Source: a virus
Reading direction: 5' to 3' (one strand)
Length of the DNA: 26,992 nt
Virus record (IMG/VR): IMGVR_UViG_3300014822_000040
Location: 1-26,992 of that record
This document shows, in pieces, positions 1-26,992 of this stretch (positions are counted from its first letter, which is position 1; each line of letters opens with the position of its first letter). Both the position numbers and the translations under genes were made by a program. The notes under the pieces are model-generated. The model had not been told where the DNA came from. It ran no database searches and saw nothing but the letters and a program-made list of their open reading frames with translations.

Positions 1-99
1 GGCGGCTGCTCGCCCGCCTTGCAGAAGCTGAGCCGAAGGTACTGGCAGGGGCTGCTGGTATATTCGGTGGGGCTCTGACAGGGGCTCTGACCGCGCTGA
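1..99. repeat. Terminal direct repeat, copy 1 (identical to 26894-26992); contig self-overlap showing a circular or circularly permuted genome
   Basis: Base-by-base comparison shows ggcggctgctcgcccgcc...ctgaccgcgctga at both ends. The match is exactly 99 nt and identity stops at base 100. Confidence 0.95.
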
Positions 100-688: not shown

Positions 689-2905
689 CTACCGGAACTT
701 TTCATTGTAAGTGCTGCCGAAGACCTTCTCATCCTCGGGATGGCCGTCCCTGACCCACATGCGGATCTTCCCCCGGCCGTCGATGAGCTTCCTCTTCTGC
801 GTGTACCCGGCGTTCCTCATGATGGCGGCAACCCTCATCTCGTCCCACCTGCTGATCTGACTGGTCTCCTTGCCGATGGCGTACTTCAGCAGGTCGCGGG
901 TGGTGAGCATGGTCATACCGCCGTACCCTGACTTCCGAGCGTAGGTCAGCACGTCCTCGGCCCAGGAGTCCTCGACGGTGCTCTCCTCCTGCTCCGGCTT
1001 GAGCAGCTTCTGCTCCTCCATCGTCAGGTAGCACCGCTCCCCCTGCTGAACGCGCTGGACTGCCTCTGCCCAGAGCTGCGGGGCGTCCTCCGTGAGGGCC
1101 TCCACGTCGATCACGCCGGGAACGTCCACGATCAGGAACCTACGGTTGCCCGTGCTGTCCTTGAGTGGAGTGCTCTCGTTTGTCGTCCCGATGAAGCTGC
1201 AGCTCCGAGGAACCTCCACGACGGTCTTGCCATAAGGAGGTCGGAATCGGTCTACTGTAGTCGTAAGGAAGTCCTTCACATCCTCGGTCTTCGCTCGACT
1301 CATCGCGGACAACTCAGGCAGCTCAACGAGGAAGACGCCCCCCAAGATCATCAGCGCGTCCTTGCTGGTCATGTCGCGGGAGAGCTGACCCGCCCATGCG
1401 CTCTTGAGTGCCAGGGCACGGACCAGCCTGGTCTTGCCGATGCCCTGCTCCCCCTTGAGCATCAGAGTCAAGTCCTGCTTGGCCCCCGGGCGGACCCCCC
1501 TGCGGGCTGCTCCAAGCATCCAGGTCCGCGCCTTGAGGCGGGTGGACTCGGAGTCCTCCACGCCGAGATAGGTTGTCAGCCAGGTATCCACGCGAGGCAC
1601 GCCGTCCCAGACGAGCTGCTCAAGGTGCTCCTTGATCGGGTTCCGGGGCTTCTTATTGCAGAGGAAGGCGACGGCCTCAGCGATCGTCTGGACGGCGTAG
1701 CTGCGCTGGTCCGACCGAGCGCGGCTCATGGCGACAGCCAGCTCCAAGTACAGAGCATCGTCCACCGGGGTATCACGGAGCATCGGCTTGTGGGACGTAG
1801 TGTCCAGCCAGAAGTCCCCGGACTCCAGGATCTTAATGGCGGTCTCCCGGGTGGGTGGGTCTTCCTTGGCCTTCTTTTTGCCCCCCTCATCGTCCCCACA
1901 GGCGTCCTCCGGGTAGGGCCTCCACTCGTGGCTCTGCTCCCCCCAGCTCGGACCGGAAGTCACCGTCACGTACCCCTCCTCCCCCTCGTGCCCGATCGCC
2001 ATCAGCATGAGGTTTCGCAGTGTCTTCTTGAGGTCGGGACGATCAGCGCGGACAGACCAGACGATCCCGTCATGCAGGGGGATCAGCGGGTAGAGGTCGT
2101 CCTTCGTGAAGACCTTCTTCTCCCAGCCGTCCACGATGTAGTCCAGAACACGATAGAAGGCGTCGGCCTCCACGGCCTGAAGGTAGCAACCCACCAGAGC
2201 GGACTTCCTGCGACGGTCCAGCCCGTCCCTGTTCGTCCCATCGGGGATTGTCCGAGTGCGAGCCTTGGTCTTCAGCTCGTAGCCAGCAGCGACGATCTCA
2301 GAGGACTTGGCCTCCTTCCACGCAGCGACCTTCGGCCACACCTGGGAGATCTGCTTGACCATCTCCGTGCCCTTGATCTTCACGCCGAAGGCCTGCCGGG
2401 CCTTCTTGGTGATGGTGAGCCCCGTTCCTCCGTTCAGCCAGATCTGCACGGAGAGCTTGGCAACCTTCCGGCAGATCTGGGGGTCGTCGATGCCGTGCCC
2501 CTGCAGCCAGGGGATCAGCTCCTCGTAGCTCTTGGGCTCGTCCCCGCTCTCCTCGATGGCGATGCGGAGGTGAGAGGCGGTCCAGTCTGTCACGACGATC
2601 ACCCTGCCAGGGTCGCAGATGCAGGCGCGAAGGGCACGGGGCAGTGACTGAATGAGGATAGGGTTGGTGCTCGTCAGACGGCCCGCGTAGTGGACACGGT
2701 AGGCCGGGTACAGCTTACCATCCCGGGCCTGCTTCGGCAGGTAGCGCCAGAGCGTCTTCTTGCTCCGGGAGAGGGTGGCGTAGCCCTCCTCATACGCGGA
2801 CAAGTCCAGGCTCAGGGGGTGGTCGAACAGGTTGACGTAGTGTGTGTCGTGAGCTACGGTCACCGTATCCTCTGGGTCTTGCAGGGTCTTAGAGGTGTGG
2901 AACAT
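689..2905 (-). CDS. Replicase: N-terminal minimal family-A DNA polymerase-like domain (aa ~1-330) fused to a VirE/D5-like SF3 P-loop NTPase (helicase) domain with a winged-helix-like C-terminus (aa ~380-738)
   Basis: 738-aa ORF. Pol I landmarks are YAGRLTSTNPILIQSLP, VVTDWTASHLRI (motif A), RKVAKLSVQIWLNGG (motif B), YLQAVEADAF and IPLHDG (motif C). VirE-type landmarks are LVWDGVPRVDTWL, Walker A GEQGIGKT, VFLVELPE, FIGTTN, NRRF and the C-terminal WDEMRVAAIMRNAGY. Confidence 0.8.
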   Translation of the reverse strand: MFHTSKTLQDPEDTVTVAHDTHYVNLFDHPLSLDLSAYEEGYATLSRSKKTLWRYLPKQARDGKLYPAYRVHYAGRLTSTNPILIQSLPRALRACICDPGRVIVVTDWTASHLRIAIEESGDEPKSYEELIPWLQGHGIDDPQICRKVAKLSVQIWLNGGTGLTITKKARQAFGVKIKGTEMVKQISQVWPKVAAWKEAKSSEIVAAGYELKTKARTRTIPDGTNRDGLDRRRKSALVGCYLQAVEADAFYRVLDYIVDGWEKKVFTKDDLYPLIPLHDGIVWSVRADRPDLKKTLRNLMLMAIGHEGEEGYVTVTSGPSWGEQSHEWRPYPEDACGDDEGGKKKAKEDPPTRETAIKILESGDFWLDTTSHKPMLRDTPVDDALYLELAVAMSRARSDQRSYAVQTIAEAVAFLCNKKPRNPIKEHLEQLVWDGVPRVDTWLTTYLGVEDSESTRLKARTWMLGAARRGVRPGAKQDLTLMLKGEQGIGKTRLVRALALKSAWAGQLSRDMTSKDALMILGGVFLVELPELSAMSRAKTEDVKDFLTTTVDRFRPPYGKTVVEVPRSCSFIGTTNESTPLKDSTGNRRFLIVDVPGVIDVEALTEDAPQLWAEAVQRVQQGERCYLTMEEQKLLKPEQEESTVEDSWAEDVLTYARKSGYGGMTMLTTRDLLKYAIGKETSQISRWDEMRVAAIMRNAGYTQKRKLIDGRGKIRMWVRDGHPEDEKVFGSTYNEKFR

Positions 2906-2978: not shown

Positions 2979-3326
2979 CTAACCCGCCAGCTGGTTTGCG
3001 AGACGCTGCAGGTAGCGGAACTCGGCAGCCTTCATCTTGTACTCCTCAGGAGCGTGGACCAGAGCTCCGTGAACCGTCCTCAACCACACGGCGAAGGTGT
3101 ACCAGGCAGCAGGGAGCTCCTCCCTATTCTCCAGCCAGATGTCAGACAGCAGCCTTGACGCCGTAGAAGCATACTGCATCGCGGTCTGATCCGTGTACCC
3201 CAGGTCCCTCAGCCAGTCCTGGAAGTCGTGAAGCGTGCGGAGAGGAACGAGGTTCAGGACAACGTCCCCATCTCGCCCCTTCACCGTGTAGTTCATAAGC
3301 TGGATATCGCCTTTTCTATGCAGCAT
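2979..3326 (-). CDS. Hypothetical protein (115 aa), first gene of the leftward operon; weak resemblance to an integrase core-binding/SAM-like helical DNA-binding domain
   Basis: The ORF has a purine-rich leader (gaagagagaagagagATG). The segment DFQDWLRDLGYTDQTAMQYASTASRLLSDIW resembles the F..wL...g.s..T...Y...l pattern of core-binding domains. No catalytic integrase domain is present. Confidence 0.6.
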   Translation of the reverse strand: MLHRKGDIQLMNYTVKGRDGDVVLNLVPLRTLHDFQDWLRDLGYTDQTAMQYASTASRLLSDIWLENREELPAAWYTFAVWLRTVHGALVHAPEEYKMKAAEFRYLQRLANQLAG

Positions 3327-3538
3327 CTCTCTTCTCTCTTCTTGGAAGAGGGGAATCAGTTCCCCACGTTCTATTCTTCTATACCACCTTTATAGGTCCC
3401 TGTAAAGAGGATGGGATGATCTTTGCTGAGAAAATCCTCACCTTCCCGGATCTGACTCCCGCCCGTCCTCCCTCCCGGCCGTGGTTCCTGCGGCAGGACG
3501 GTCCTCTCATGTCGAGGTAGAACCCCCGGTATCGGCCA

Positions 3539-3862
3539 GGACCAACCTTGAGGTCGGTGATACCAACCTTGTTTGGAGGTTGGTCAGTCCAGGATATGGT
3601 AGGTTCTACCTTATATATACTCTCTGGACCAACCTACTCTTCTTATTTTTAAAGAGTATTAGTAGTAGTATGCACATAGAAACGCTGCATAGAGCACACG
3701 AGCATATGCAAAATAGAGCTGCACACACGCCCTTATATATAAAAGTTTGGACAGGTTTTTAGCGGAGGTTGGTCCACGCCGATAACAGGCATTCAACGCG
3801 GGATATGGCCGGGACCGACCCCAAAAAGGGGTTGGGAACAGCGGTTGGTCCTGACCATATCC
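3539..3862. promoter_or_regulatory. Divergent control region / candidate replication origin: AT-rich core (~3611-3760) flanked by iteron-like repeats
   Basis: AGGTTGGTCC or its complement occurs at 3539-3548(-), 3562-3569(-), 3577-3585(+), 3626-3635(-), 3766-3775(+) and 3843-3851(+), with a degenerate copy at 3812-3820(-). GGATATGG occurs at 3592-3599 and 3801-3808, and its complement at 3855-3862. CCTTATATATA occurs at 3609-3619 and 3731-3741. No convincing ORF is present. Confidence 0.55.
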
Positions 3863-4078
3863 AGGCAGGAGAGGGCGCTACTACCGTCTCCTCTCGTCTT
3901 AGCAGTTCACATCTCACCTGCCTTAGAGACGTTTCTGTGGAGAGGGGGCAGGACTGGGAGTCCGGTGGGGTGTGAAGTCCGAGCCCAGACCACCTGAAAA
4001 TCAGGGTGAACAAAAAGGGGTGCAGGAGGAATAGTCGTGTTATGATAAGGGCATACGCCATGTAAGAGGAGCAACACC

Positions 4079-20323: not shown

Positions 20324-23300
20324 ATGCCCAACCCCGACGGTACTCTGACTTGGGAAGAGCGCAAGGCGCTCCTCCAGGGGCTCGACCTGACAGAGCCCAC
20401 GGAGGAAGAGAAGCAGACTGCGGGCGGCGGTCCGGCCCTCTACGACCCTGCCGACGAAGTGGAGCCCGCTGCTGACGCGACGAAGACCGCACTCTACGAG
20501 GGGAAGCAGTCCGCTGGAGTCCCGTATAGAGACGCCCAGCTACAGGCCGCGCAGGAAGTACAGGAGATCATCTCTGCTCCCAGACCTGTCCAGTCCTTCG
20601 ACATCAACAGGATGGAGGGGGCATCCCGGCGCGGCGCGGTCGAGGAGAAGGAATCCGGAGTGGGGGCGATCCTCGAAGCCCTCAAGCCCCAGGTGATCTC
20701 CGAAGCTCCCGAGAAGGCGGAGACCCCGGACCGTGTGACCGACCTGCGTACCTCTGTCATGGCGGCGGCACAGAAGGCGGTGCCCATCGGCACTCCTGAT
20801 AGGCCTTCCGCTGTCAAGGCGGAGCTGCTCTCGCAGATCGAGAAGGCCAGGCAGGAGCAGATCTCGCGCCTCATGACCCCTGGCGAAGACCAGGTTCCCC
20901 TCATTGAGAAGATCTACGCAGAAAACGTCGGGGCACTTCCCGCCGACCCGCTTGAGCGAAGGAAGGAGCTGAACAACATGATGGAGGCCATCGTAGGGGG
21001 CACCCTGCGAGCCGCCTTCCCCACCATAGACATCGCCCAAGCTCAGCTTTCCGAGGACACCCCCATCTCCGTCCGTGCGGTTCAGGCTGCCCTCTCGTCC
21101 GAAGGGGAAGCGGGAGAAACCGTAGAGACCCCTATCGCCGCTGCGATGAGGGACCTTGGCGGAATCGCCCGTATCGCTGTTGACCCTGTGTGGAAGGGCC
21201 TGACCTACGAAGTGGATGAGCAGGGCAACCCTGTGGACCCGGAGGACATCAACTACAAGCTGGCCCAGGCCCAGGACCGATTCCTGCGAGGTAAGTCCAA
21301 AGGCGCAGCGGACTACCTTGCGGGGGCTGTGGGAGCTCGGTTCCCTGCCTTCACGCTGGCTAAGCAGTCCTCCAGACCCTCACAGGGCGTACTGGCCAAG
21401 GACATCGCTCTCTCGATTGCCAGGGGGCAGAGCCTCGGTGACGACCTGATGGAGCTCCCCGCCATGACCATGCTGGCAGAGCAGGCGGGGTACCCCGAGG
21501 CTCCGTTCTGGATAGGCATGGCAGGGGAGATGCTCCTCCCGGCGGTCCCCGGCCTGGGTACAGCAACGAAGACCGCGAGCCGGGCAGCGAACAAGCTCAA
21601 GCTCTCCAAGGTCATGGAAGATTTGAGCGAGGAAGCAGTCACCAGGGCCGTGGCGTCAGGAGGGAGAGTGGACCCCTCTACGCCTCTCGGCCGCATTGTA
21701 GGCGAGACCAGCAAGCAGCTTCGTCTTCTGCAGAGCAAGGAACTGTACCACAACGTGGACAACGTCAAGTCCTGGCTCCGGACTGCGTCCGGGCAGGAGC
21801 TAATCGGTCCCTTGATCAAGAAGGCGGCGAGCCTGGCTGAGGTAGAGGGGCTCACCTCCCTTGCCAAGACGCTGAGAGAGGCGAGGACCGAAGACGAGCT
21901 GACTGACGCCCTCATCGCGATGTCGAAGGAGCCTTTCTACATAGACGCGGTTGACGCTACTCTGCTCCAGTCCGCAATCAAGAGAGCAAGGGAGGAGGCC
22001 GCTAACGCAGCACCTCAAGACCTGATCTTCATCACGCCGACCACCGTCGTCCGCGAGAGCGCATGGGACGAGGTGGGGGACGAGGTCATGTCGGCAGCGT
22101 CCGACATCCTCAAGGTAAGCGATACCGGGCAGGGCAAGTCCTTCAAGCTGGAGAACCCTGCCCAGGTGAAAGAGGTGCTGGACCTGACACTGGGTCCCGC
22201 CAAGATAGCGCAGTCTCCCTTCTGGACGGAGGTCTCCCGGGCTCTGGAAGAGGGAAGGCCCCTGAACATCAAGCAGTACAGGTCTGTCCACGAGGAGGTG
22301 CTGGGAGCTCTCACCCGTCAGGCGACCCGGGACTCCGCGAAGCTCCGTTATACCGCTGAGGCATACAGGGCGGCGTCGGTTCCAGTGGCCCGAAGGAGCC
22401 CTGTAGGGAGGACCCTCAAGGTCTCAGCCGACCTCCTCTCCGATACTGCCTTAGGGAAAGGGGTTAGCAAGGTCCTGAAGAAGCTGGGCAAGAAGCGAGT
22501 CACCGGCTTTGAGCCGGACCCACGGGCACCCCTCCCTGTCAGGAGATGGGCAGAGGACATGAGGAACAGGCTGCTCCGGCTGGACGACGAGCTGAAGGCT
22601 GAGATCGCTGGCGCGAAAAACAGGCCTGAGAAGTTCAAGGAGATGCTCCTTGAGGAGCAGCGGCTGCAGACGGAAGCTGACATCGCCTCTGGGAGGTTCG
22701 CGCCCGAGCGCGCTCTGGAAGAGGTCGTCAGTATCTTCTTCTCTGGGGTCAAGGTCTCCGACAGGGAAATGCAGAGGGCACTTCCCATGCTCCCCCTCTC
22801 CCCCGAGGTCGTGGGCACCAGCCCCTCGGCATGGGCCGTGACCCCTACAAACGTAGCTCATGTGATCGAGACCTTGAGGGGGGCAAACAAGTCGCTCAGG
22901 GGGAAGGGCCTCGGGGGGCAGCTATCCGGGGACGACTTGTTCGCAGCAATGACGACCTGGCTGCTGCAGAGCAGGGCGAAGAGGGAGATCTCCAAGGCAG
23001 CCCGGGAACTGGAGAGCATGTACCCTGAGCTGACTGCCAGGATGACGCCGAAGGAGCTGGCAGCGTTCAGACACGCCTTGGACCACGTAGCCACTTCCGG
23101 CTACTACTTCGCATCGGGGTCCGTCCTTCTGGGGTACTCCGATTTCAGGGCTACACAGAAGGCCCTTGGGTTCGCTGAGAGCCTCGGCCTTACCGACTGG
23201 CCCCGTATTCCAGGCGAGTTCTACCCTACCAAGTTCTCTGCCCACCCTGAGCTGATCCACATCGCTGACAATATCCGGGTCACTGCGGACCCGGAGCTGC

Positions 23301-24820
23301 AGGCCCTCATCGACGCGGTGAAGTCCAGCAACTCACTGGCGGTGAACCTGGAGGCGCTGAAGCTGAGAAGTAAGACCGGGGCGGACTTCGTCTGGGGCCA
23401 GATCGGCAACATGTTCCGCTGGATCAACAGGACCGCAGTAGGGGGGCTGCTCGGAGGGTTCCCCCTGCCCAACGGCAGGTTCCTCGGAGCGAACATTCTC
23501 ACAGCTCCTCTGATCATGGCGGTGACCGTCCCGGGCTTCGTCCTCCGGTCGCTGCCCTCCTCTGTACGGAACCTCGCGGAAATGATCCCGAAGGCCCTCC
23601 CTCGGTCGGGGGAGCTGTTCACAGACCCGGCGGGTAAGGTCTGGACAGCGGAGATGCTGGAGGATGCGGTCAAGCGGAACAACATCCAATCTTCCCAGGC
23701 GAAGTTCGAGTTCCGCGACCGGGTGATCGAGGATATCCGAAGGACCGCGAGGATGACGGCGGACGGGTTTGAATCGGGTACGGTTAGGCAGGCGCTACGC
23801 TGGCTCCGGCCGGACAACATGAACATCTGGAACATGGTCGCAGAGGCCAGCGACAATGCCTTCCGCAAGGCCGTGTTCATGGAGGCGCTTAGAGTCGGGC
23901 TGACTGAGCCTGAAGCGGCTGATCTGGCAAGAAAGTCCCTTCTCGACTATGGGGCGATCCCCAGCACGGAGAAGGACACGGTTGCCCGGTACATGATGTT
24001 CTACGCCTTCCAGAGGCAGATGTTCATGGACACGCTGGGGGCTATGGTTCGCCCGGACGCCCTGGACAACCTACGCAAGATAGCGGTCCTCACCAAAGAG
24101 CAGCAGGAGTTCGAGGGGACGTGGTCCCTTGTGCCAGAGTACGCCCAGACCCGGATGTGGGCTGAACTGAAGGAGACCTACGACGGAGTCATGACGGGCC
24201 ACTTCGGTCCATCTGCTCCGCCCTTGGACTCTCTTAAGACCTTGGTTGACGCCCTCTATGCAGTCTATGACCCCTCCTCGTTCTCCCTGTCAGAGACAGC
24301 GGAGAGGATGAACGAGGCCCTGTTCGCGCTACCCTTGTTCACCCTCGTCCGTGAGCTTGGTCAGAGCCGAGGGGAGCTGGAAAGCCAGGGGCTATTCCCG
24401 GAGAGAGACGCCATGGCCCTCCAGGGGATCGGCCTGTGGCCTGAAGCAGTTCGCTTCTTCGACCTTGAGCCCGTCCCCCTCTCCCAGCGCAGGGCGGGGC
24501 GAGCTGCCTTCGTGGTCCCTGGAGTCGAGGGTCTGCAGCAGTGGAGGTTTGGTTCGGAGGAAGGCAGGAACCGCTACCTCATGACCCTGACGGCCTCCCT
24601 GGTGATGGGTCTTCAGAGGAATCTGAGGGACTACGGGCAGGTTGTCGCAAGGATGACGGGCACGGATGTGGACAAGATCGGCTACAAGCGGCTGGACGAC
24701 GGGAGCATCGTAGCCTTCTTGATCGGAGCGGACACGGTCATTCCCGTCCCATCGAAACTACAGCAGCAGGAGCGGCTGACCCAGGAGATCATCAGGGAGC
24801 TGAACCAGCTCAAGAGGTAG
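20324..24820 (+). CDS. Giant internal virion / DNA-ejection protein candidate (gp16-like by size and position; 1498 aa)
   Basis: It is the largest ORF and starts 2 nt after the previous gene. I saw no lytic transglycosylase, peptidase or polymerase signature. Confidence 0.5.
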   Translation: MPNPDGTLTWEERKALLQGLDLTEPTEEEKQTAGGGPALYDPADEVEPAADATKTALYEGKQSAGVPYRDAQLQAAQEVQEIISAPRPVQSFDINRMEGASRRGAVEEKESGVGAILEALKPQVISEAPEKAETPDRVTDLRTSVMAAAQKAVPIGTPDRPSAVKAELLSQIEKARQEQISRLMTPGEDQVPLIEKIYAENVGALPADPLERRKELNNMMEAIVGGTLRAAFPTIDIAQAQLSEDTPISVRAVQAALSSEGEAGETVETPIAAAMRDLGGIARIAVDPVWKGLTYEVDEQGNPVDPEDINYKLAQAQDRFLRGKSKGAADYLAGAVGARFPAFTLAKQSSRPSQGVLAKDIALSIARGQSLGDDLMELPAMTMLAEQAGYPEAPFWIGMAGEMLLPAVPGLGTATKTASRAANKLKLSKVMEDLSEEAVTRAVASGGRVDPSTPLGRIVGETSKQLRLLQSKELYHNVDNVKSWLRTASGQELIGPLIKKAASLAEVEGLTSLAKTLREARTEDELTDALIAMSKEPFYIDAVDATLLQSAIKRAREEAANAAPQDLIFITPTTVVRESAWDEVGDEVMSAASDILKVSDTGQGKSFKLENPAQVKEVLDLTLGPAKIAQSPFWTEVSRALEEGRPLNIKQYRSVHEEVLGALTRQATRDSAKLRYTAEAYRAASVPVARRSPVGRTLKVSADLLSDTALGKGVSKVLKKLGKKRVTGFEPDPRAPLPVRRWAEDMRNRLLRLDDELKAEIAGAKNRPEKFKEMLLEEQRLQTEADIASGRFAPERALEEVVSIFFSGVKVSDREMQRALPMLPLSPEVVGTSPSAWAVTPTNVAHVIETLRGANKSLRGKGLGGQLSGDDLFAAMTTWLLQSRAKREISKAARELESMYPELTARMTPKELAAFRHALDHVATSGYYFASGSVLLGYSDFRATQKALGFAESLGLTDWPRIPGEFYPTKFSAHPELIHIADNIRVTADPELQALIDAVKSSNSLAVNLEALKLRSKTGADFVWGQIGNMFRWINRTAVGGLLGGFPLPNGRFLGANILTAPLIMAVTVPGFVLRSLPSSVRNLAEMIPKALPRSGELFTDPAGKVWTAEMLEDAVKRNNIQSSQAKFEFRDRVIEDIRRTARMTADGFESGTVRQALRWLRPDNMNIWNMVAEASDNAFRKAVFMEALRVGLTEPEAADLARKSLLDYGAIPSTEKDTVARYMMFYAFQRQMFMDTLGAMVRPDALDNLRKIAVLTKEQQEFEGTWSLVPEYAQTRMWAELKETYDGVMTGHFGPSAPPLDSLKTLVDALYAVYDPSSFSLSETAERMNEALFALPLFTLVRELGQSRGELESQGLFPERDAMALQGIGLWPEAVRFFDLEPVPLSQRRAGRAAFVVPGVEGLQQWRFGSEEGRNRYLMTLTASLVMGLQRNLRDYGQVVARMTGTDVDKIGYKRLDDGSIVAFLIGADTVIPVPSKLQQQERLTQEIIRELNQLKR

Positions 24821-24927: not shown

Positions 24928-25860
24928 ATGACAGGTAAGAGCACCGTCCGCCCCCGCGAGATCAAGCTGCAGCTCGACAGGGGACGCACGGAAGCTATCA
25001 GCGCGGTCGCTGCTTCTTCCATTGCCAAGGAGTCCCTGGTCGCCGTCGTGGGTGACGTGCGCGACAGGATCTTGGTGTCTGGAGCTGACGCTGACTCGGC
25101 GGCGACCAGGGATGTGGTCATCCTCTGCGCCCCACGGTCGATTCCTTCGGGAAGCATCGGGGAGGTCTGCTCCTGGATGTTCGTCAGGGACGTGGACACC
25201 TCGTCGGCTAACGTGGGCGACCCTGTCTTCCTGTCGTCTACGGCCGGCGGGTGGACCCTGACTCCCCCTTTGGTGCCCCGCGTGGTGGGCATGGTGACCA
25301 AGGTAGACGCCTCCACCGGCTCTGTGCTACTGGCCCCGACCTTCTTCCAGGGCATCTACGGCTCCCCCTCTCTGTCCGACCCCACCCTGACGGGTACCCT
25401 GTCCGCTCAGGACGGCTCTCTCCTCCAGTTCCTGGGAGCTGGCGCCAGCACCGGGGATGTCATTTCCCGGATTGGTGCCTCGCCGTCCGAAGGTCTGGAG
25501 CTGGTCGTCTACGAGGAGACCATCTCCCCTGCGGCCATTGAGACCAGCGTCGTCAACGTCCCGGCCTTCTCCATGGTCCTGGCGGTCCAGTCGAACGTGG
25601 AGACCGCCCTGACGGGCGGGGGCACCACGGACAGCTACGGCATCGGCACCTCCGCTGATCCTGACAAGTACGGCAGCTCCTCTACTCTGACCCAGAACTC
25701 GAAGAGCAACTACATTGGCGCCACCCCCAATGCCTCCTCGGAGCAGATCGTCCTGACCGGTACGTCGGGTGGGGCCGTTGCGGGCGACACCGCTCTGACC
25801 GTCGGTTCCGTGCGAATCCGGGTGGTCTACTACACTCTGAGCAGCCTCGACAACGCCTGA
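24928..25860 (+). CDS. Fibre / receptor-binding candidate: N-terminal DUF2190-like beta-barrel plus a Ser/Thr/Gly-rich C-terminal domain (310 aa)
   Basis: AGGAG at 24916-24920 lies 7 nt before ATG 24928, so I prefer this start to GTG 24910. The segment VGDPVFLSSTAGGWTLTPP..VVGMVTKVDASTGSV parallels AGDPLYFHTTGGMVAQGP..IIGVALTDDSGG of 11857..12285. Its position matches that of the T7 gp17 fibre gene. Confidence 0.5.
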   Translation: MTGKSTVRPREIKLQLDRGRTEAISAVAASSIAKESLVAVVGDVRDRILVSGADADSAATRDVVILCAPRSIPSGSIGEVCSWMFVRDVDTSSANVGDPVFLSSTAGGWTLTPPLVPRVVGMVTKVDASTGSVLLAPTFFQGIYGSPSLSDPTLTGTLSAQDGSLLQFLGAGASTGDVISRIGASPSEGLELVVYEETISPAAIETSVVNVPAFSMVLAVQSNVETALTGGGTTDSYGIGTSADPDKYGSSSTLTQNSKSNYIGATPNASSEQIVLTGTSGGAVAGDTALTVGSVRIRVVYYTLSSLDNA

Positions 25861-25872
25861 TAGGAGCAGACC

Positions 25873-26001
25873 ATGGACACCTTCAAGAGCGCCCTCAAGT
25901 ACATCGTCCCTCTCATCGTAGGCATCTTCACGGGCATGGGCATCGACCTCGGGGTCTCCCCTACCGGCGAGTGCCCTCCTTGCGAAGAGGTCCCGGAGTA
26001 G
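25873..26001 (+). CDS. Small membrane protein, 42 aa (MDTFKSALKYIVPLIVGIFTGMGIDLGVSPTGECPPCEEVPE)
   Basis: It is below the ORF-track cutoff. AGGAG at 25862-25866 lies 6 nt before the ATG. It has one hydrophobic helix and a CPPC motif in an acidic tail. Confidence 0.45.
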   Translation: MDTFKSALKYIVPLIVGIFTGMGIDLGVSPTGECPPCEEVPE

Positions 26002-26057
26002 GGCCTGCTGGTATCAGGGGGCGAGAACAGAATCCAATGCAACCGTGTAGAGGCAAC

Positions 26058-26276
26058 ATGAGGACGGGTGGACAGAGCAGTAGGCTGAGGGGCAAGAGGA
26101 AGCTCATGGCCTACGGTATGTGCCTCGGCTACTTTCTGGCTCTCGCAGCTCTCTCCCGTGCCGGGGTCTCTGACGGGGTTCTAACCAACCTGGGGCTCTA
26201 CGGGCTTCTTTCTCTCGGCGCCTACTCCGGAGCGAACCTTGGGGTAGCCTATGCCAACTCAAAGGGCAGAGAATGA
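26058..26276 (+). CDS. Holin-like small membrane protein with two predicted TM helices (72 aa from ATG 26058, or 56 aa from ATG 26106)
   Basis: The TM segments are MAYGMCLGYFLALAALSRAG and LGLYGLLSLGAYSGANLGVAY. AAGAGGAAG precedes ATG 26106. The track start GTG 25971 overlaps the 42-aa ORF and adds an Arg/Gly-rich extension. Confidence 0.5.
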   Translation: MRTGGQSSRLRGKRKLMAYGMCLGYFLALAALSRAGVSDGVLTNLGLYGLLSLGAYSGANLGVAYANSKGRE

Positions 26277-26322
26277 AGACGCGCGGAGGGTCAGTTCGTC
26301 ACGCAGCCTATAGGGGGGAGTG

Positions 26323-26992
26323 ATGCCTTGGCCAGAAGAGACCCAGGATACATGTAAGTGGATTCGCGCCCTGCTGATCGACCACGACAAGAGCAGAGCG
26401 GGGCTCATCGCCCGGATGCTCAGGCTCTCTTCTGTTGCCGTTGACCATGAAGAAGACCTGCCATCAGCGCTGGCGCGGGTGAGAGAGCGAGAACCGGAAG
26501 ACCGCTATCAAGTGATCCTGGTGGACCTGGGGCACCTCTCTCGAACCTGGGAGTCCTTGCTGCAGGCTATCTCTGAAGCTGACCCTGCGGCTGTCCTGGT
26601 TGGGCTGTCCGACGTGTCGGGAGTAGTGAACATGCTTGGTGCCACGTCCGGAGAGAGGTACGGCGTGATCGTCTTACCGAGCTGTCCCGAGGAGGGGGCT
26701 GCGGAGACATGGGGGAGAGTCGTCGGTGCGATGCTGGTAGGAGAGGTGTCGAGGACCGCAAGCCCTGCCAGGAGGCTGGAGGCGCTACAGCGGCAAACGC
26801 TCGCGCTTGTCCGAGCCCTCGACCCTGTACTGAGGGACGCGCTGGCTGCAAGCCGAACCCCCGCTCCTGTCCCCCTGCCGGCGTCAGGGATTGGGCGGCT
26901 GCTCGCCCGCCTTGCAGAAGCTGAGCCGAAGGTACTGGCAGGGGCTGCTGGTATATTCGGTGGGGCTCTGACAGGGGCTCTGACCGCGCTGA
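26323..26992 (+). CDS. Junction-spanning ORF, 5' part (234 aa in total, ends at base 134 of the circle): CheY-receiver-like (beta-alpha)5 domain, helical/Pro-rich linker, C-terminal glycine-zipper anchor
   Basis: I translated it by hand and found no stop from ATG 26323 (or GTG 26320) to the window end. An in-frame TAG lies at 26311-26313. The sequence is IRALLIDHDKSRAGLIARMLRL..SVAVDHEEDLPSALARVRE..YQVILVDLGHLSRTWESLLQAISEADPAAVLVGLSD..YGVIVLPS. It is absent from the ORF track because no stop falls inside the window. Confidence 0.6.
   Translation, partial: MPWPEETQDTCKWIRALLIDHDKSRAGLIARMLRLSSVAVDHEEDLPSALARVREREPEDRYQVILVDLGHLSRTWESLLQAISEADPAAVLVGLSDVSGVVNMLGATSGERYGVIVLPSCPEEGAAETWGRVVGAMLVGEVSRTASPARRLEALQRQTLALVRALDPVLRDALAASRTPAPVPLPASGIGRLLARLAEAEPKVLAGAAGIFGGALTGALTAL
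26894..26992. repeat. Terminal direct repeat, copy 2 (identical to 1-99)
   Basis: It matches bases 1-99 exactly over 99 nt. Confidence 0.95.

Follow-up and report, generated by a model that had tools for sequence, protein, structure and literature searches.

The 26,992-nucleotide virus record IMGVR_UViG_3300014822_000040 (IMG/VR, positions 1 to 26,992; hereafter the window) includes an open reading frame (ORF) at 689..2905 on the − strand, whose 738-aa product joins a minimal domain related to DNA polymerase I (PolA), a linker, a VapE-type superfamily 3 (SF3) helicase and a C-terminal domain. The protein adds a new member, so far unannotated, to the TV-Pol-SF3 helicase class. It is identical to the NCBI entry 'MAG: hypothetical protein D6722_25070 [Bacteroidetes bacterium]', and both its gene and those of its relatives are deposited under the label 'hypothetical protein'. 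A sequence-only reading of this DNA had described an exonuclease-less family-A polymerase domain with almost no thumb at the place where VapE/D5 helicases usually carry a primase, and that annotation holds. The novelty which it implied for the architecture, and for the idea that the domain replaces a primase and may both prime and elongate, falls away, as these were published in 2008 under the name TV-Pol (PMC2579912); the design has been known since then, and current concepts are unchanged by the finding.

Polymerase and helicase domains of the fused replicase

The N-terminal third of the protein is a family-A polymerase catalytic core made up of palm, fingers, a hairpin arginine and a two-helix stump of a thumb (about aa 15–335; 1901..2863; all coordinates within the gene are on the − strand). 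Taken singly, the 738-aa sequence points weakly to PolA: it matches PHROG_17 'DNA polymerase' over aa 60–324 (E 8.6e-8), actinophage Pol I genes by tblastn over aa 76–322 (E 5e-5) and an NCBIfam exonuclease/polymerase family (E 2.8e-5), the Pfam DNA_pol_A match (E 8.3e-5, 22.1 bits) lies below the gathering cutoff of 34.3, and Taq Pol I is matched by phmmer at an E of about 0.03. A family profile derived from an alignment of the N-terminal domains of 17 relatives (alignment A2) matches Klenow at E 2.4e-36, aligned from the motif-1 region through the last residue of Pol I. An AlphaFold2 model of the polymerase domain built on A2 (mean pLDDT 84.7, pTM 0.83) matches Klenow in Foldseek at E 1.5e-12; the solved structures closest to it are those of Klenow, Bst, Taq and the apicoplast PolA (E about 1e-12, query-normalised TM 0.63–0.66), and the closest viral models are phage PolAs. 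Profile and structure searches of the N-terminal region thus bear out the family-A identity proposed earlier for aa ~60–290 and find a polymerase fold rather than some other fold, with Klenow as best match. No archaeo-eukaryotic primase (AEP) or TOPRIM family was found on aa 1–400 with Pfam or PHROG. A T7-like single-subunit RNA polymerase was considered and rejected: the domain, of only about 320 aa, is too small, and no RNA polymerase is present among the best 60 profile matches and best 50 Foldseek PDB matches, all of which are DNA polymerases.

The predicted palm and fingers carry the motif A aspartate, the motif B RxxxK and the motif C aspartate in family-A order. On re-reading the sequence, all of the motifs quoted earlier are present in the order given, and most of their coordinates stand; the first motif, YAGRLTSTNPILIQSLP (aa 73–89), spans 2639–2689, the earlier 2639–2683 covering only G75–P89, and motif C, IPLHDG (aa 275–280, with catalytic D279), spans 2066..2083, slightly beyond the earlier 2066–2080. 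Strands 68–71 and 77–81 of the model form a beta-hairpin (2663..2704) bearing R76, the equivalent of Klenow R668 in the TGRLSS motif, which is unchanged in 28/28 and 17/17 aligned relatives. Motif A, VVTDWTASHLRI (aa 104–115; 2561..2596), includes catalytic D107 and has H112 at the position of the Pol I steric-gate Glu; motif B, or the O-helix, RKVAKLSVQIWLNGG (aa 146–160; 2426..2470), includes R146xxxK150, with Q154 for Phe762 and N158 for Tyr766; and the motif 6 equivalent, YLQAVEADAF (aa 241–250; 2156..2185), includes Q243, equivalent to Klenow Q849, and the family-invariant E246. Residue equivalences were taken from the hidden Markov model alignment of profile and Klenow together with A2, in which H112 corresponds to Klenow E710, Q154 to F762, N158 to Y766, and D107 and D279 to D705 and D882. 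Ten columns (G63, R76, R93, D107, D122, R146, K150, G159, E246 and D279) are invariant in A2, a comparison spanning sequences only 25–30% identical, and with the arginine of the hairpin, both metal-binding aspartates and the RxxxK of the O-helix among them, they argue for an active polymerase rather than a relic.

Relative to Pol I, the domain is reduced in several places. No exonuclease match was found on the 738-aa protein with Pfam, PHROG, the Klenow profile alignment or the model, which bears out the earlier statement that there is no 3'-5' exonuclease domain. The polymerase domain begins at about residue 15, with ~60 aa before the hairpin arginine, and the profile aligns to residues 211–251 and then 311–603 of the Klenow chain, skipping ~60 residues of the thumb tip. 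The description of the domain as thumb-less is right as to the tip, but a two-helix stump remains in the models as a short helical hairpin (about aa 18–62; 2720..2854). By DSSP its helices are H19–32 and H35–48 in the AlphaFold2 domain model, or H18–27, H35–48 and H52–59 in the full-length model; the hairpin (about aa 18–60) has a pLDDT of 70–78 and the two models differ slightly. The six residues equivalent to E. coli Pol I 681–686, which run into the last thumb helix, are deleted in the profile alignment, and a shortened last thumb helix has been tied to room for the initiating triphosphate in T7 RNA polymerase and CCPol, the DNA polymerase of SCCmec (Bebel et al. 2020, PMC7581432; Rice 2023). 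Motif spacings had been said to match Pol I, which is nearly so between motifs B and C (129 aa, compared with 124 in Klenow), whereas that between A and B is short (43 aa rather than about 53) because the protein lacks ~10 residues of the fingers after SGDE that its relatives in A2 possess.

The residues by which Pol I selects nucleotides (Glu710, Phe762 and Tyr766) are not kept, and the changes are family-wide: across the aligned relatives E710 is replaced by His, F762 by Gln, Leu or Asn, and Y766 by Asn, and the invariant E246 falls at Pol I A852, beside the minor-groove Gln. Canonical exonuclease-bearing PolAs from the same search retain Glu, Phe/Tyr, Tyr and Ala/Gly at those positions. Motif C is HDG in the 738-aa protein and HDE in most relatives; HDG, HDA and HDS recur among them, and the Asp is always retained. 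The steric-gate His, the loss of the O-helix aromatics and the HDG of motif C had all been noted from the single sequence and are confirmed, with the pocket changes now seen to be those of a lineage. Sugar selectivity is not readable from the sequence; in this clearly remodeled pocket the gate His could exclude or accommodate a 2'-OH.

The C-terminal half was recognized earlier as a VirE/D5-type SF3 NTPase, and rightly so. Its helicase core (aa 428–642; 980..1624) matches Pfam VapE-like_dom (PF05272; E 3.5e-66) and PDB 7pds, a solved VapE-like protein (E 2.7e-35), with which the elements of the AAA+ core are all aligned, namely Walker A GEQGIGKT (aa 485–492; 1430–1453), Walker B VFLVELPE (1313–1336), sensor 1 FIGTTN (1178–1195) and the arginine finger NRRF (1136–1147). 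This half also matches the NrS-1 helicase 6k9e in the PDB sequence search, and PHROG helicase and primase-helicase families match at 1e-39 to 1e-81 over the helicase portion only, those named 'primase' being confined to aa 388–726. A charged, disordered linker (about aa 336–352; 1850..1900; pLDDT <50 at 338–348) separates polymerase and helicase. For the last ~95 residues (aa 645–738; 692..973) the full-length model (pTM 0.51) predicts three helices and then a beta-hairpin at low confidence (pLDDT 34–56); following the pattern of P4 alpha and other D5-family helicases, this domain is possibly a winged-helix origin binder. The earlier premise that VirE-type helicases are commonly joined to a primase is documented in the account of phage helicases in Kazlauskas 2016 (PMC4889955), where such proteins are described as often fused to DnaG or AEP primases.

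Relatives and the elements that carry them

Related phages and integrative islands alike retain the fusion. An exhaustive HMMER search of 1.8 billion representatives returned 44 homologues of the N-terminal domain, and the architecture, which the sequence-only reading had suggested searching for, is present in ~30 clusters (50% identity) with the domain at the very N-terminus of ~700–1000-aa proteins. Pfam DNA_pol_A is matched at E <= 0.001 in 23 of 28 relatives (best 2.3e-18), whose C-termini correspond to DUF5906 (13), Pox_D5 (8), VapE-like (7) and D5_N (4). A gene-fusion artefact is ruled out, as the architecture recurs in many independent assemblies. Word-indexed homologue searches gave no match with aa 1–354 alone, three PolAs only with the family profile, and relatives of the helicase half only (coverage <=46%) with the full-length protein. 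Pattern scans for relatives found nothing in IMG/VR and two loci in GTDB genomes, on contigs already known for P0016 and P0023; A2 is too diverse to seed such a scan.

Several of the relatives belong to phages resembling that of the window. The closest (P0015, PolA plus VapE) is on a 30.7-kb contig whose terminase, portal, major head protein and giant protein are 33–40% identical to those of the 27-kb genome, and the contigs of another (P0070, PolA plus D5_N/DUF5906), 30–33 kb in length, encode terminase, portal and scaffold-sized proteins 27–34% identical to it. Phage contigs L001, L006 and L007 (30–33 kb) have large terminase, portal and major capsid proteins 27–40% identical, and all carry the mini-PolA fusion. 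With shared head and terminase genes and differing SF3 types (VapE-like versus D5_N/DUF5906), the fusion is retained while the helicase type differs, a pattern that suggests exchange of helicase modules within one phage lineage.

Other members are found on a 35.6-kb phage contig, on an alphaproteobacterial chromosome where the gene adjoins a resolvase and an HTH_17 gene, and in islands with the gene order integrase, HTH_17, fusion, which we take to be the order of P4-like islands; versions with an extra N-terminal domain adjoin an integrase and a cI/Cro-like pair. In every relative context the fusion is preceded by a small ribbon-helix-helix (RHH) or helix-turn-helix (HTH) gene, and these genes are homologous neither to each other nor to the 115-aa ORF next to the replicase gene in the window.

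The chromosomal copies (L002/L003, L008/L009 and L014/L015) lie in small integrative islands with a resolvase or integrase and either HTH_17 or a cI/Cro-like pair, and two of the chromosomal island copies adjoin type I restriction-modification operons. We note that the island layouts resemble P4-like satellites with the PolA domain in the primase position. A tblastn match on the Desulfomonile plasmid pDESTI.01 turned out on inspection to encode an ordinary PolA (DYSQAQLR; Pfam E 6.5e-55) outside the present family. This plasmid (L010; Desulfomonile tiedjei, 26.9 kb) encodes at 25204–26913 a stand-alone, exonuclease-less PolA of 569 aa with Gln at the steric gate, together with RNase HI and a PD-(D/E)XK nuclease, and the polymerase may be another plasmid-borne truncated PolA replicase.

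The phage genome and a candidate origin

The window is the 27-kb genome of a small tailed, podovirus-like phage. Sequence identity between its two ends reveals an exact 99-bp terminal direct repeat (1..99 = 26894–26992), which indicates that the genome is complete (circularly permuted or terminally redundant) and makes statements about what it lacks meaningful. The gene content includes small and large terminase, a portal-sized protein, scaffold, major head protein, a cement/decoration protein, an SU10-type adaptor, internal virion proteins and a 1498-aa orphan protein; the replicase gene and the 115-aa ORF are read leftward, away from the structural operon. No second polymerase, primase, single-strand-binding protein (SSB), RNase H or ligase was found in the genome by Pfam, PHROGs, NCBIfam and PDB sequence searches. 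The earlier statement that there is no other polymerase or primase therefore stands as to detection, but several large ORFs, including ones of 1498, 697 and 603 aa, are unassigned, so the absence is not absolute.

The 115-aa ORF (2979..3326, −) is immediately upstream of the replicase gene and has no family match in Pfam, PHROGs or NCBIfam; its product could be an origin or operator binder or an accessory factor of the polymerase. The 73-nt gap between this ORF and the replicase start contains a perfect 12-bp GC-rich hairpin (ACCCCCCCTGCC / GGCAGGGGGGGT, 8-nt loop, 2937–2970), followed by a T-rich tail on the + strand only, antisense to both genes; this may be a terminator against antisense read-through or a regulatory structure.

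A candidate origin or operator region (3517..3865) was recognized by clustered GGACCAACC repeats on both strands. All four exact copies in the 27-kb genome lie within about 310 bp, at 3539(+), 3626(+), 3767(-) and 3843(-), with single-mismatch copies at 3578(-) and 3812(+), and the repeats lie to either side of an AT-rich stretch with two copies of CCTTATATATA (3609 and 3731). The region is the gap between the divergent operons and the least GC-rich part of the genome, and by its repeats it looks like a candidate iteron-type origin or operator array.

Among the genes of the rightward strand, the 1498-aa ORF (20324–24820, +) has no Pfam, PHROG or PDB sequence match. The C-terminal ~500 aa of its product are 35% identical to the 1813-aa giant protein of L001, and the protein is probably an ejected or internal virion protein.

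Proposed role in replication and comparison with known systems

We propose that the 738-aa protein is the phage replication initiator, a reading that we hold to be probable, if by a modest measure. The SF3 hexamer would melt and unwind the phage origin, perhaps recognized by the C-terminal domain at the GGACCAACC cluster about 600 bp upstream, and the tethered mini-PolA, in replacing an AEP or DnaG primase domain, would start or extend short strands on the exposed single-stranded DNA (ssDNA). Bulk synthesis, primer removal and ligation would be left to host enzymes, because the thumb is too short for processivity, a motif scan of the replicase found no clamp-binding motif, and no other phage replication proteins were detected; the short thumb and the 27-kb genome likewise favor a protein that hands over to the host replisome, not one that is self-sufficient as a replicase. 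The fusion in primase position, the recurrent architecture, the invariant catalytic residues and the deleted 681–686 equivalent all support this model, as do the published prediction of TV-Pols as prim-pols and the priming shown for CCPol with its partner MP, and priming by the protein is plausible; priming, whole-genome elongation and relaxed sugar selectivity are each something we infer.

A number of points weigh against the proposal. CCPol has to be bound to the small protein MP in order to make DNA primers de novo and by itself carries out primer extension only (Bebel et al. 2020 eLife, PMC7581432); MP has an OB fold (Rice 2023), and no MP-like or OB-fold gene was found anywhere in the genome by the same family searches. 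Nor do the relatives offer a conserved partner, their small neighbor genes being of RHH, NikA-like or HTH type. A pattern scan of the replicase found no zinc-finger Cys/His pattern, motif C is HDG and not HDE, and the fingers have the ~10-aa deletion. Many ORFs have no detectable homologues and may hide a primase or polymerase, and the origin was assigned from repeat clustering only. According to Bebel et al. 2020 (PMC7581432), no TV-Pol besides CCPol has been characterized, the fused ones being without biochemistry.

Some of these points are shared by a possible but doubtful alternative, in which the mini-PolA is a polymerase only and extends a 3'-OH from host DnaG, an RNA polymerase transcript, a nick or a D-loop, with the fusion serving to couple strand displacement to the helicase. 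This fits the strict primer dependence of CCPol without MP (PMC7581432), the failure to detect an ssDNA-binding partner in the genome or a zinc finger in the replicase, and a catalytic core that is otherwise that of an ordinary PolA; it fits poorly with a domain in the exact primase position of VapE/D5 proteins, with the family-wide replacement of three nucleotide-pocket residues kept by ordinary PolAs, and with a last thumb helix shortened as in CCPol and T7 RNA polymerase. Going beyond the initiator model in the other direction, the lineage marked by His, Asn and Glu could be a partner-independent family-A primase whose remodeled sugar pocket might allow it to start with ribonucleotides and continue with deoxynucleoside triphosphates (dNTPs), an intermediate between Pol I and T7 RNA polymerase in a single chain with its own helicase, possibly in a thermophile, which we think unlikely. 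Quite improbable is the headline of the sequence-only reading, a self-sufficient single-polypeptide replicase that primes, unwinds and copies the 27-kb genome with no host polymerase. The complete genome has no other detected polymerase, and Sputnik V13, a sole replicative enzyme, is a parallel (PMC2579912); against this, the thumb tip is missing, and Pol I with a truncated thumb is less processive and has a lower fidelity (Minnick 1996, as cited in Rice 2023), the protein is without a proofreading domain or clamp-binding motif, and small phage genomes generally lean on the host replisome, at least in the portrayal of phage replication in PMC4889955.

We give very little credence to a vestigial domain, that is, a catalytically dead DNA-binding or scaffold module like the RRM-only remnants paired with SSBs (Rice 2023). 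The divergence of the 738-aa protein, with its Pfam score below threshold, and the combination of an HDG motif C with a fingers deletion might be read that way, but the metal-binding Asp pair, the hairpin Arg, the RxxxK and Q243 show little or no variation across relatives only 25–30% identical, HDG, HDA and HDS variants recur in the family with the Asp always retained, and the model predicts a full fold of palm and fingers at high confidence.

If the protein does prime and extend alone, it would make a fused TV-Pol accessible to biochemistry for the first time, and would test the 2008 prediction of family-A polymerases as primases, so far backed only by the two-subunit CCPol-MP. The three replaced residues that police sugar and base pair define concrete mutants (H112E, Q154F and N158Y), and a compact polymerase-helicase might serve as a reagent. 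The assignment also lets the replication module be annotated in a lineage of ~27–33-kb podovirus-like phages.

The closest likeness is to the TV-Pol family, defined by Iyer, Abhiman and Aravind 2008 (Biol Direct 3:39, PMC2579912) as a minimal domain related to PolA, which has a bi-helical thumb, an Arg in a hairpin, an Asp pair in the palm, and an Asp and RxxxK in the fingers. TV-Pols are never linked to a nuclease, occur in transposons, prophage remnants and viruses, and either stand alone, follow an N-terminal helical domain or are joined to a D5-like helicase on their C-terminal side as in Sputnik V13, the sole replication enzyme of that virus; they were predicted to be both primase and polymerase because they displace AEP prim-pol domains on such helicases (PMC2579912). 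The term appears, too, in a 2024 survey of phage polymerases. The 738-aa protein has the same minimal core (bi-helical thumb, hairpin R76, D107/D279, D122 and R146xxxK150), likewise without a nuclease; this core takes the position of an AEP prim-pol, N-terminal to an SF3 helicase, in a setting of small viruses and integrative elements, with relatives in phage contigs, a resolvase island and integrase islands. It can be likened to V13 and to the 'Pol A-SF3' proteins of polinton-like viruses, which can be the only replication enzyme of their element. It differs in having a VapE-type (PF05272) partner rather than one of D5_N/Pox_D5 type, which its relatives do have, and in that the host element is a tailed bacteriophage.

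How near the lineage stands to the founding TV-Pols was gauged on a single sequence, ORF 030 of Microcystis phage Ma-LMM01 (506 aa, adjoining IS-type transposases), presumed to be the TV-Pol of the 2008 paper. It is the best match to the A2 profile in a 50-kb stretch, yet a weak one; in hhalign the two align at E 5.9e-5 with 65% probability over 83 columns, and share D-x4-H and K-x7-NG signatures. As the lineage is far closer to Klenow (2.4e-36) than to ORF 030 (5.9e-5), common descent with the founding TV-Pols is not shown, and it may be either a Pol I-proximal TV-Pol branch or a truncation of independent origin that reached this design by convergence. What marks the lineage in the aligned sequences is a steric-gate His, an Asn in place of Tyr766 and the lack of a Phe762 equivalent, and it is possibly a distinct sub-lineage of the TV-Pol-SF3 class.

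The CCPol-MP-Cch2 system is similar in that a mobile element pairs an A-family polymerase, exonuclease-poor and short-thumbed, with a helicase of D5/primase-C-term type, and de novo priming by a PolA fold has been proved experimentally for CCPol-MP only; such polymerases have been argued to arise from Pol I by repeated truncation (Rice 2023). CCPol is a separate polypeptide requiring MP, which is encoded between the polymerase and helicase, whereas here polymerase and helicase are fused and no MP-like gene was found in the genome. CCPol also retains the steric-gate Glu and Phe762 and uses dNTPs only, while Glu, Phe and Tyr are replaced here by His, Gln and Asn. With no MP found and the Glu and Phe of CCPol lost, the protein is not an enzyme of CCPol-MP type.

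Klenow, Taq and phage Pol I have the same fold, motif order and catalytic residues as the N-terminal domain, which differs from canonical family A in being without 3'-5' and 5'-3' exonucleases, the thumb tip and the 681–686 equivalent. In overall logic the protein is reminiscent of the AEP/DnaG-SF3 fusions (pRN1 ORF904, NrS-1 polymerase, P4 alpha, vaccinia D5 and SaPI Rep), which have a helicase of the same superfamily and in which an N-terminal strand-initiating enzyme, an SF3 ring and a C-terminal DNA-binding domain make up the sole replication protein of a small element; the difference is that the N-terminal fold here is that of PolA rather than AEP or TOPRIM.

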